Below, in pieces: positions 18,670 through 40,729 of a DNA stretch of 64,000 nucleotides (positions within the stretch are counted from its first letter, which is position 1; the number at the start of each line of letters is the position of its first letter). The notes below the pieces were generated by a model that saw nothing but the letters and a program-made list of their open reading frames with translations, had not been told where the DNA came from and did not search any database. The DNA is taken from contig OZ024755.1 in the NCBI GenBank assembly GCA_964016885.1, positions 8,680,001 through 8,744,000 of the forward strand, given 5' to 3'. The stretch is from Eledone cirrhosa. Its lineage: Eukaryota. The translations under genes were made by a program, and so were the position numbers.

Positions 18670-18728
18670 AATAACAGGAGGCTGGACTGGGGTAATTCCT
18701 TAAAGGTTTATTATACTATGAACATTTA

Positions 18729-18770
18729 AACTGACCGGTTTCAGTATGAAACCGGTGACATCATCAGGTA
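18729..18770 (-). ncRNA. Degenerate hammerhead-like motif
   Basis: Minus strand reads CTGATGA-tgtcaccggtttcatact-GAAA-CCGG-TC, with palindromic stem III ACCGGT and a GUC triplet, but stems I and II pair poorly. Lies in an island of about 175 bp between (TA)n tracts. Confidence 0.4.
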
Positions 18771-20060: not shown

Positions 20061-20250
20061 AATAATTGTTTCTACTTTAGGCACAAGGCCAGCGATTACC
20101 CAGTGCATTACTGGTACTTTATTTTATCGACCCCGTAAGGATGAAAGGCAAAGTCAACCTCGGCGGGATTTGAACTCAGATCGTAAAGGGACGTAACTAT
20201 GCTGGAAAGCATGGCGTCCGACCCTCCACCGATACTGCCAATCCACCGCC
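20061..20250 (-). mobile_element. tRNA-derived SINE, full length (Meta-domain-like body)
   Basis: Minus strand has an A-box-like ttggcagtatcgg, B-box gagttcaaatc, body gcctttcatccttacggggtcgataaaataaagtaccagt and an (att)n-like tail. Multiple near-identical copies in the window. Confidence 0.85.
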
Positions 20251-20274
20251 CTTCATGAAGAAAAAATAATAATA

Positions 20275-20805
20275 ATACGTATTGTCTTGAAAACGGAGCT
20301 TAACTCGAGAAATGAACTTATTGCCAAAAATGCGCTTGCAATCCCAGTTGTTACCTACAGTTTCAATATCATAAATTGTAACGTTAATGAAAGTAAAACA
20401 ATGGACACCAAAATCACGAAACCTTTGAACTGTCATAAAACATATCACCCAAAAGCAGATGTGCATCCTCTCCAACTCCCTAGACAAAATGGAGCTATGT
20501 TACAGGATATCGACCGTTGGAATCGATCAGTATATTGAAACTATAGATGACTGGATGATGAAAATGATTGCAGACCACGAAAGGAAGAAGTTACATTTAG
20601 TCACAAAGGGAGGAAGGAAGAGTGTGGAAGAATTGAGAATAAATTTTGAAAATGATGACTATTCTGCAATGAAAGCCACAAAGAACATCAATGTGTGCAC
20701 TAAATGGGAGCAAAACCACTGCATGGGCAGTATGTGTTCCATAGCAAAGAAATTGATGCAGATCAAACTTTCGCCTATCAGTGACTGCGGAGTTGTGGGC
20801 TAACA
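20275..20805 (+). mobile_element. R4/Dong-clade non-LTR retrotransposon fragment (region C-terminal to RT), frameshifted
   Basis: Translation LKTELNSRNELIAKNALAIPVVTYSFNIIN...MDTKITKPLNCHKTYHPKADVHPLQLPRQNG resembles the recalled R4/Dong pattern L.S.LN..NK..AIN..A.PV..YSF.II.W...D...RK.L.....HHPK.D..RLYLPR..GG. Confidence 0.75.
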
Positions 20806-30680: not shown

Positions 30681-30896
30681 TACATAATTGTTTCTACTTT
30701 TGGCACAAGGCCAGCAATTACCCAGTGCATTACTGGTACTTTATTTTATCGACCCCGTAAGGATGAAAGGCAAAGTCAACCTCAAATCCCGCCGAGGTTA
30801 ACTTTGCCTTTCATCCTTACGGGGTCGATAAAATAAAGTACCAGTAATGCACTGGGTAATTGCTGGCCTTGTGCTAAAAGTAGAAACAATTATGTA
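30681..30896. mobile_element. Palindrome of two SINE 3' halves (103-bp arms, 10-nt loop)
   Basis: Both arms match the SINE body and tail seen elsewhere in the window; 2 mismatches. The loop aaatcccgcc is itself SINE sequence. Confidence 0.85.
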
Positions 30897-36670: not shown

Positions 36671-37146
36671 TCGAAGAATATGGTGATGGTGATGATGATG
36701 ATGATGGTGATTAATATATGATGCTAACGATAACATCTATTATATATCGCAGAACAAGGGCAACCTTAGCTTCAATAAAAATATCAGTATGAGAGTAGAA
36801 GCTTTGTAGAGCAGTGTAGTTGTAGAGATTGTGTCATTCGTCAAAAGATAAAGAAGGAGGGGAAGAGGAGGGCTGTAGGGGTAGGGAGAGAGGGAGGAAT
36901 ATTATAAACAAAATGGCCGCTGCGTTCTTCCTTATCTTTTTCCTTCATCAAAAGTACATTCAATCAAGCCAACAGACTCCGAATTCTGAAAGCTTATATA
37001 GAAGATAAGAAAATGCCAAGGGTCATAGAAAACGTGTGTATGAGTGTGTGGAATACCATTGCCTTAGATTTCATTTTTCATTTCAATACAACGATGCAAA
37101 ATTCTAATGAATCATATAGAATTCATCTAGATATGTATGAAGACAG

Positions 37147-37466: not shown

Positions 37467-37564
37467 AGAGAGAGAGAGAGAGAGGGGGGGATAAGTTTAT
37501 ATATATATATTATATATATTATATATATATATTAGGATTGGTGCTCTGAAATAGCGATGTATAC

Positions 37565-37990
37565 ATGAATGTATGTATAGTATATTTGCCAATACACACA
37601 CAGTATGTTTAATTAAAAACATTTGAAGACCATTCGCTATAAGTTTTAAAGTAGTCACTATATCGGTTTCTTACTTATTTTCGGCAAAGGCTGGGAGAGT
37701 GACTGACAGCTGTTTCTCGCTGGTTGGCGTTTATCAAACCCACGCACTCACCTGCCTTTATATAGAAGATATTTAAAAAATGCCAAGGGTCATAGAAAAC
37801 GTGTGTGTGAAGCTATGTGGAAGATATATATACCATTGCCAGCGAGAAAGAGCTCTCAGTCACTCTCACAGCCTTTGCCGAAAATAAGTAAGTGACATAG
37901 TCACTACTTTAAAACTTATAGCGAATGCTCTTCTAAATGTTTTTAATTAAACATACGGTATATTGCCAAATATACTATACATACATTCAT
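37565..37990. repeat. Imperfect inverted repeat / MITE-like foldback (arms about 155 bp, spacer about 115 bp)
   Basis: 37565-37723 is the reverse complement of 37839-37990 with a few substitutions and small indels. Confidence 0.8.
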
Positions 37991-38129
37991 ATATATGATG
38001 ATTTCTCACGAATGAAACAGTTCTAGTCCTGTAGAAGCTTTTCTGTATTAAACATTTATACTCTGCTATATATTGAGTACCTTACTTACTGTGGTTACCG
38101 CCGATTGAACCTGGGATAACGTTATATAT

Positions 38130-38544
38130 ATATTGTTATACTTTGGGAGGGTCATGTTGCCAATAAGAAACACACGCACCAGTTGCTTTCACTTCAATTT
38201 ATTATATATTTATAAATTTATAAATTTACAAATCTACAAACTTATAAATTTCTGGTTGGTTGGTTGGTTCCACAACCAGATAGTTGTTTATATATAGTCA
38301 TAGTCCTTTCGTCACACACTCTGTGACCTCCTCAGTCACTGAAGAGGTCACAGAGTGTGTGACGAAAGGACTATGACTATATATAAACAACTATCTGGTT
38401 GTGGAACCAACCAACCAACCAGAAATTTATAAGTTTGTAGATTTGTAAATTTATAAATTTATAAATATATAATAAATTGAAGTGAAAGCAACTGGTGCGT
38501 GTGTTTCTTATTGGCAACATGACCCTCCCAAAGTATAACAATAT
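38130..38544. mobile_element. 415-bp near-perfect palindrome (207-bp arms, 1-nt centre at 38337); probable inverted Penelope-like pLTR remnant
   Basis: Arms are reverse complements with one mismatch seen near the centre (ctcctcag vs ctgaagag). Hammerhead motifs start at the symmetry centre. ttgaacc/ggttcaa extends the symmetry outward. Confidence 0.8.
38334..38378 (+). ncRNA. Minimal type I hammerhead motif
   Basis: agtca-CTGAAGA-g-GTCACA-gagtg-TGTGAC-GAAA-ggac-TA-tgact. Stem I is 5 bp; stem II is 6 bp with one extra G; stem III AGGACT is only possible as a dimer (tandem G-A pairs); CUA triplet. The mirror copy on the minus strand (about 38296-38340) has CTGAGGA. Confidence 0.65.
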
Positions 38545-38598
38545 CGGGTTCAACACACGATTTCAGATAAAGAATCTTGCTAAACAAATTCAGAAACG

Positions 38599-38646
<48 letters not shown>

Positions 38647-40607: not shown

Positions 40608-40729
40608 AATGGTATGACCTCGACGGCAGAGCTCAAGCCGTTTCGACGGCTATTTCTTGACTAATATCTTTAGTCCAGAAATAGCCGTCGAAACGGCCTG
40701 AGCTCTGCCGTCGGGGTCATACTTTTTCC
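40605..40729. repeat. 125-bp GC-rich palindrome containing the 3' half of a hammerhead
   Basis: Arms of about 60 bp with a few mismatches. The right arm has GAAA-CGGC-ctgagctct-GCCG-TC (40690-40712). Flanked by (TA)n. A related single copy lies at about 28354-28395. Confidence 0.7.

Follow-up and report, generated by a model that had tools for sequence, protein, structure and literature searches.

The closest described counterparts of the locus studied here are insertions of Penelope-like elements (PLEs), retrotransposons that, as laid out in PMC8557442, leave behind an inverted 5'-truncated copy and a one-sided tail of 30-40 bp, with a bias toward (TA)n targets. In the A. vaga PLE described in PMC3846280, the inverted pseudo-LTR (pLTR) and the direct pLTR have an overlap of 15 bp and the target duplications measure 8-10 bp; according to the same source, the 5' ends of PLE pLTRs form palindromes of 18-38 bp, head-to-head junction palindromes are abundant, and the first ORF codons are located in the pLTR and the tail. 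PLE pLTRs also carry minimal hammerhead ribozymes (min-HHRs), with opposite-strand pairs 100-700 bp apart (PMC4209133), and stem I marks the end of an intron in D. virilis (PMC4209133, PMC2377424). For the PLE reverse transcriptase (RT), PMC11167929 reports two internal start sites that bound the tail and unprocessed RNA as the main template, together with a protein that is predicted to be a dimer and the cutting of both strands at AT-rich DNA.

Here we describe a 461-bp insert (38134-38594) in a 64,000-nucleotide stretch of Eledone cirrhosa DNA, hereafter called the window. We interpret it as the probable remnant of a Penelope-like retrotransposon, a dead end-piece whose head-to-head form likely goes back to one insertion event. 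Its layout is not new, since the combination of inverted arm, direct arm, tail, (TA)n duplication, and minimal hammerhead has already been published for PLEs.

Results

A long palindrome within a larger insert

The window is AT-rich, rich in microsatellites, and contains no N. Scanning all centres across its whole length, we found four non-microsatellite palindromes, the longest of which occupies 38130-38544 of the assembled sequence and measures 415 bp, with two 207-bp arms (206/207 identical) around the single central base C38337. An earlier note on this DNA had described the same arm length, single-base centre, and one mismatch, and the scan bears this description out. The lone mismatched pair, 38331/38343, lies 6 nt off the axis, and by simple arithmetic the chance that a randomly placed mismatch falls within 6 of 207 pairs from the axis is about 3%. 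Such a position is what would be expected of a native imperfect palindrome and is a hint at a native origin of the inner part, although mutation at a later time or an error in priming would leave the identical pattern. We treat the junction in Table 1 as a candidate native short palindrome that may have served as the turnaround site, its extent in the native element being a guess.

Both a flanking direct repeat and a one-sided extension, which are missing from the earlier note, enlarge this picture. The 16-bp repeat is the longest flanking direct repeat, its 11-mer occurs in the window only at 38118 and 38595, and just 2 of the 306 TA runs in the window are preceded by AACGT, namely, those at the same two positions. 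The flanking repeat thus delimits an insert of 461 bp that consists of the inverted arm, the direct arm, and 50-54 nt on the right side only. Within it we found one intact minimal hammerhead motif and no enzyme gene, and its target is (TA)n. The ATG-led frame at the right end is unremarkable in length, 462 of 1,962 ATGs in the non-microsatellite DNA of the window staying open for as long, and a weak protein search with the 40-residue frame at the insert end returned no match (0/3 candidates).

Table 1. Features of the insert and its flanks (positions in the window)
Feature	Position	Strand	Remarks	Basis
Left direct repeat	38118..38133	+	16 bp; AACGT and then TA units; probable target-site duplication; last 4 bases are the first 4 of the palindrome	
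Inverted arm	38130..38336	-	without tail; likely inverted 5'-truncated pseudo-LTR	palindrome scan
Mirror hammerhead core	38296..38340	-	stem I contains a G.G pair; not matched by the descriptor	
Junction	38327..38347	.	1-nt centre C38337; only mismatch at variable core position 7	palindrome scan
Minimal type I hammerhead	38334..38378	+	stem I 38334-38338/38374-38378; core 38339-38345; extra G38346; stem II 38347-38352/38358-38363; GAAA 38364-38367; loop 3 GA, not palindromic; cut predicted to follow A38373	descriptor match
Direct arm	38338..38544	+	likely pseudo-LTR	palindrome scan
ATG-led frame	38519..38593	+	25 codons, open to the insert end; possible start of the parent ORF (weak)	
One-sided extension	38545..38594	+	50 nt, or 54 when the shared ATAT is assigned to the target; putative PLE tail	
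Right direct repeat	38595..38610	+	16 bp; runs on into TA microsatellite	

Other fold-backs are present in the window. Self-BLAST detected a fifth one, with arms 76% alike; the old palindrome at 37560-37995, with arms of this similarity, ends 135 bp to the left of 38130, and its central part recurs as an 86% copy at 36994-37053. A tRNA-type SINE at 30681-30896 is folded head to head with a 2-nt overlap and a 10-nt spacer and carries no ribozyme, as judged against about ten un-inverted copies or fragments elsewhere in the window, and a small, GC-richer palindrome with arms of about 53 bp and nested hairpins lies between TA runs at 40612-40722. The palindrome at 55873-56218 has 173-bp arms and a 4-nt loop, and both arms contain a minimal hammerhead with a palindromic loop 3; its stem I lies about 66 nt from the axis, and a one-sided extension of about 88 nt is found on its left, between TA runs. 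The absence of kinship between this palindrome and the one at 38130-38544, as claimed in the earlier note, agrees with our comparison, in which 188 of 200 shuffles score as well.

Hammerhead motifs at the axis

Two divergent hammerhead cores, CTGAAGA on the plus strand (38339) and CTGAGGA on the minus strand (38335), flank the axis at the places where they had been reported. Their equivalence as two functional cores is not supported, as stem I is intact in the plus copy only: the minus copy has a G.G pair in this stem, a detail absent from the earlier note, and the centre base C consequently belongs to the plus copy, which marks the native orientation. The axis itself falls inside the 5' strand of the plus stem I, 2 nt before the core. 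A descriptor of the minimal type I hammerhead matched the window once, at the plus copy (stem I of 5 bp, stem II of 6 bp, one extra base), and gave no match on either strand of 60 Markov controls of 57.7 kb; the descriptor is strict and missed the bulged motif of the 55873 palindrome. No hammerhead family appeared among all 10 Rfam matches for 38325-38560 or among the 150 of 260 Rfam matches inspected for the window. The miRNA families that Rfam did return are below gathering score and were set aside as hairpin artefacts.

The plus copy shows the core boxes, a stem I within the range of 4-5 bp, a long stem II, the extra base, and the G10.1-C11.1 pair that characterize minimal hammerheads, and it departs from them in positions 15.2-16.2 and loop 3, which is GA and not palindromic, and in the extra base, which is G and not H. 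Judged by its sequence, the motif may be a variant or a decayed copy of the PLE minimal hammerhead. The cut that had been expected after 38373 is correctly placed by the sequence, following A38373, and the earlier statement that stem III is unable to close as a monomer is supported as well. A degenerate hammerhead-like motif on the minus strand at 18715-18770 has a core, a palindromic loop 3, and an internal 10-bp inverted repeat, and lacks stem I.

Folding predictions give the stem III self-duplex -1.7 kcal/mol in this motif versus -8.3 kcal/mol for the CG form and -5.0 kcal/mol for the AU form. However, the predicted self-duplex of the shortest and commonest minimal form is also -1.7 kcal/mol, so that the duplex is weak here, yet no weaker than in that form. 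The predicted probability of stem I drops from about 0.5 without upstream sequence to 0.02 with 7 nt of upstream sequence and to 0.000 in the full insert, while the palindrome has a predicted folding energy of -353.7 kcal/mol. Read-through RNA is thus predicted to form one long hairpin without the hammerhead stems, and because RNA crossing the axis would fold in this way, no ribozyme activity is predicted for this copy. We also considered a dimer of the two cores in cis and rejected it: the cores lie on opposite strands and therefore cannot dimerize in cis, and their stems have a probability of 0.000 in the full insert. Among the listed sequencing runs containing words of the left flank and left arm, there was no RNA data set.

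Comparison with known elements

The features expected of a PLE insertion are found in part. The insert contains a head-to-head inverted truncated copy with a palindromic junction, and the sequence of the filled site displays a likely target-site duplication at an AT-rich (TA)n target. With 461 bp, it lacks an RT and endonuclease of its own and hence autonomy. We found no RT or GIY-YIG ORF in the insert. Of 279 filtered frames elsewhere in the window, the 150 longest gave no Pfam match of this kind but five weak matches, all below the cut-off, and the window holds no second copy of the arm. PLE membership is therefore argued from structure. A scan with the hammerhead pattern produced two metagenome loci, both unrelated, one of them in a LINE-like reading frame, and no viral locus. 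In the unrelated metagenome locus L002 (141-2150), which has LINE-like RT frames, the match to the pattern is due to chance.

Two coding-like regions of the window may be recorded here. The broken frames at 20197-20803 resemble the end of a LINE reverse transcriptase, and they gave no Pfam match above the cut-off. A frame of 147 residues at 46815-47258 (+) has no Pfam match and one metagenome homologue (38% identity over 96%, E 4.6e-37) and is probably a real host exon or gene.

With Pen2a_Av-type PLE insertions, as described in PMC3846280 and in the scheme explained in the legend to Fig. 2 of PMC8557442, the insert shares the head-to-head inverted copy, the junction palindrome, an arm of about 200 bp, a putative one-sided tail, the flanking duplication, the (TA)n target, and possibly the first ORF codons in arm and tail. 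It differs from the published PLEs in having no ORF body, in a putative tail of 50-54 nt instead of 30-40, and in a duplication of 12-16 bp as opposed to the 8-10 bp of A. vaga. A further difference is that the axis lies inside stem I of the hammerhead, a point that the accessible text of PMC3846280 and PMC8557442 does not address.

The comparison with the min-HHRs of metazoan PLEs, as presented in PMC4209133, leads to a similar picture. The CUGANGA and GAAA cores, the 5-bp stem I, the 6-bp stem II, an extra base between positions 9 and 10.1, the G10.1-C11.1 pair, and the lack of a stable stem III are all shared. In contrast, the extra base is G instead of the consensus H, with G occurring in only 1 of 56 printed rows by our own count of the supplement, and loop 3 is a non-palindromic GA, whereas CG or AU is found in min-HHR rows of this shape. 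Unlike the opposite-strand pairs of PMC4209133 with their spacing of 100-700 bp, the two cores here overlap. Non-LTR retrozymes (PMC7229834; bioRxiv 10.64898/2026.07.22.740005), as far as these sources describe them, are likewise short, non-coding, equipped with a type I hammerhead, and of proposed PLE origin, but they consist of units repeated head to tail in tandem and can give rise to circular RNA. We rejected an assignment to this class, which needs head-to-tail units each with a hammerhead, for an insert that is arranged head to head and has a single intact motif.

MITEs have symmetric terminal inverted repeats that abut a short duplication of fixed size, the common ones having TA or other short duplications. 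The one-sided extension and the 12-16 bp repeat contradict such symmetric ends, and this candidate was rejected as well.

Discussion

Route of formation

The structure of the insert suggests the following course of events. The endonuclease of the element would have cut the AACGT(TA)n target with a stagger of 12-16 nt, and reverse transcription, starting at the tail end, would have used some 260 nt of uncleaved RNA as its template, the entire hammerhead included. The cDNA would then have ended at stem I or up to about 10 nt upstream of it, in self-complementary sequence, and turned round there. By our own extrapolation, the cDNA most likely turned round by pairing with another cDNA that had been primed at the opposite nick and had begun at the second start site; a beginning at the other RT start site would explain both the missing left tail and the 1-nt centre. 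Predicted DNA energies favor a duplex of two strands over a hairpin for the 7-nt centre (-3.5 versus 0.0 kcal/mol), the 11-nt centre (-9.1 versus -0.7 kcal/mol), and the 21-nt centre (-17.1 versus -4.7 kcal/mol), and the 1-nt centre is therefore better suited to two strands than to a hairpin. Snap-back of the cDNA on itself, the less likely route, and self-priming on an antisense template, the alternative put forward in PMC3846280, are possible turnarounds too. In the snap-back 5' junctions that PMC11371274 describes for the R2 protein, synthesis likewise continues from the 3' end of the cDNA, so that the 5' junction comes to hold an inverted copy; R2, however, belongs to another element class, and here the inverted copy reaches almost to the 3' end of the element, stopping short of the tail.

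Did the ribozyme set the axis?

In this route the axis would be fixed by a short sequence palindrome and not by the fold of the ribozyme. A further speculation is that, in this family and perhaps in many PLEs, the pyrimidine-rich leader just upstream of the hammerhead, which would be splice-acceptor-like or initiator-like, complements the core, so that a native palindrome of 11-21 nt could act both as a lock on the ribozyme and as a programmed site of cDNA turnaround, a proposal that we regard as doubtful. In the alignment of PMC4209133, UCAG, the complement of the core, occurs within 15 nt upstream of the core in 7 of 56 rows where about 2 would be expected (a hand count against a rough estimate), and as four of these seven rows are probably related vertebrate families, the excess is suggestive only. 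By this count and the 2-nt spacing, a sequence-level link between core and axis is conceivable. The leader upstream of the hammerhead here looks like a putative splice acceptor.

The earlier note had instead proposed that the hammerhead structure itself prompted a template switch during reverse transcription; under this mechanism, with the same PLE origin, folded hammerhead RNA would stall the RT at the 5' edge of the ribozyme. The position of the axis within the 5' strand of stem I, so close to the core, speaks for this idea, as do snap-back junctions, which PMC11371274 documents for the RT of another retroelement, above all where the cDNA is full-length. Yet, judging from polarity, the RT would enter stem I at its 3' side (38378), so that the fold would already be unwound by the time the enzyme arrived at 38337, and the SINE described above folds back in the same head-to-head layout without any ribozyme. 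In addition, the 55873 palindrome, said to have the same architecture, contains a good minimal hammerhead whose stem I is separated by about 66 nt from an axis lying upstream, and hammerhead catalysis is dispensable for insertion in vitro according to PMC11167929. We consider this mechanism improbable, and a triggering of the inversion by the ribozyme fold is not supported; for the turnaround, it is enough to have a short palindromic sequence at stem I. Since only one of the two hammerhead palindromes is centred on its motif, and short truncated inserts are bound to break nearby, no axis preference can be claimed. Among the titles and abstract openings searched, we found no paper that places an inversion axis at a hammerhead.

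Alternative origins of the palindrome

A second alternative holds that the whole palindrome spreads as a unit, as a MITE-like or PLE-mobilized palindromic family with an inherited, fixed axis. The near-identity of the arms (206/207) would fit such a family, and the sequencing runs may do so: a share of 0.2 or more of the words of the left flank plus left arm, two parts that this word count does not separate, is present in 11 of the 24 listed runs, from seven coded organisms and six studies. By the same unseparated count, 20 of the 24 contain some part of this sequence and 3, all from one sample, half of the words or more. Against it stand the asymmetry of the insert, with its one-sided tail and flanking repeat of 12-16 bp, the lack of a second copy in the window, and the expectation that RNA forming a perfect 207-bp hairpin would be a poor template for RT, and we hold spread as a unit to be no more probable than stalling at the ribozyme.

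Still less probable is an inversion after insertion, by a DNA-level fold-back at a micro-palindrome during replication or repair. The five fold-backs in unrelated sequences of the window indicate that this genome makes or tolerates such structures, but here the inverted arm ends where the target repeat begins, with the two repeat copies intact, whereas a later fold-back would be expected to have disturbed a flank. That the palindrome is a fold-back artefact of assembly or library is hardly credible: although PLEs in tandem or inverted arrangement are known to cause problems in assemblies (PMC8557442), an artefact would add neither the 50-nt extension nor the second 16-bp copy of the target, nor leave a mismatch between the arms, and arm divergence is seen among the other fold-backs of the window, where similarity falls as low as 76%.

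Implications

As an end-piece probably left by a Penelope-like retrotransposon, the insert is one more short PLE-type insert, whose main use is to show tail and target duplication in clean form. If many copies were to share its axis, the purpose of the PLE hammerhead and the origin of the inverted pseudo-LTR, as discussed in PMC8557442 and PMC11167929, would be tied together, and a recurrent junction at the core, if true, would be testable in the existing in vitro PLE system. Should the reading of a programmed turnaround be true, the sequence of the ribozyme would set the sites of inverted pseudo-LTRs, and the PLE hammerhead would gain a role in replication that is free of cleavage.
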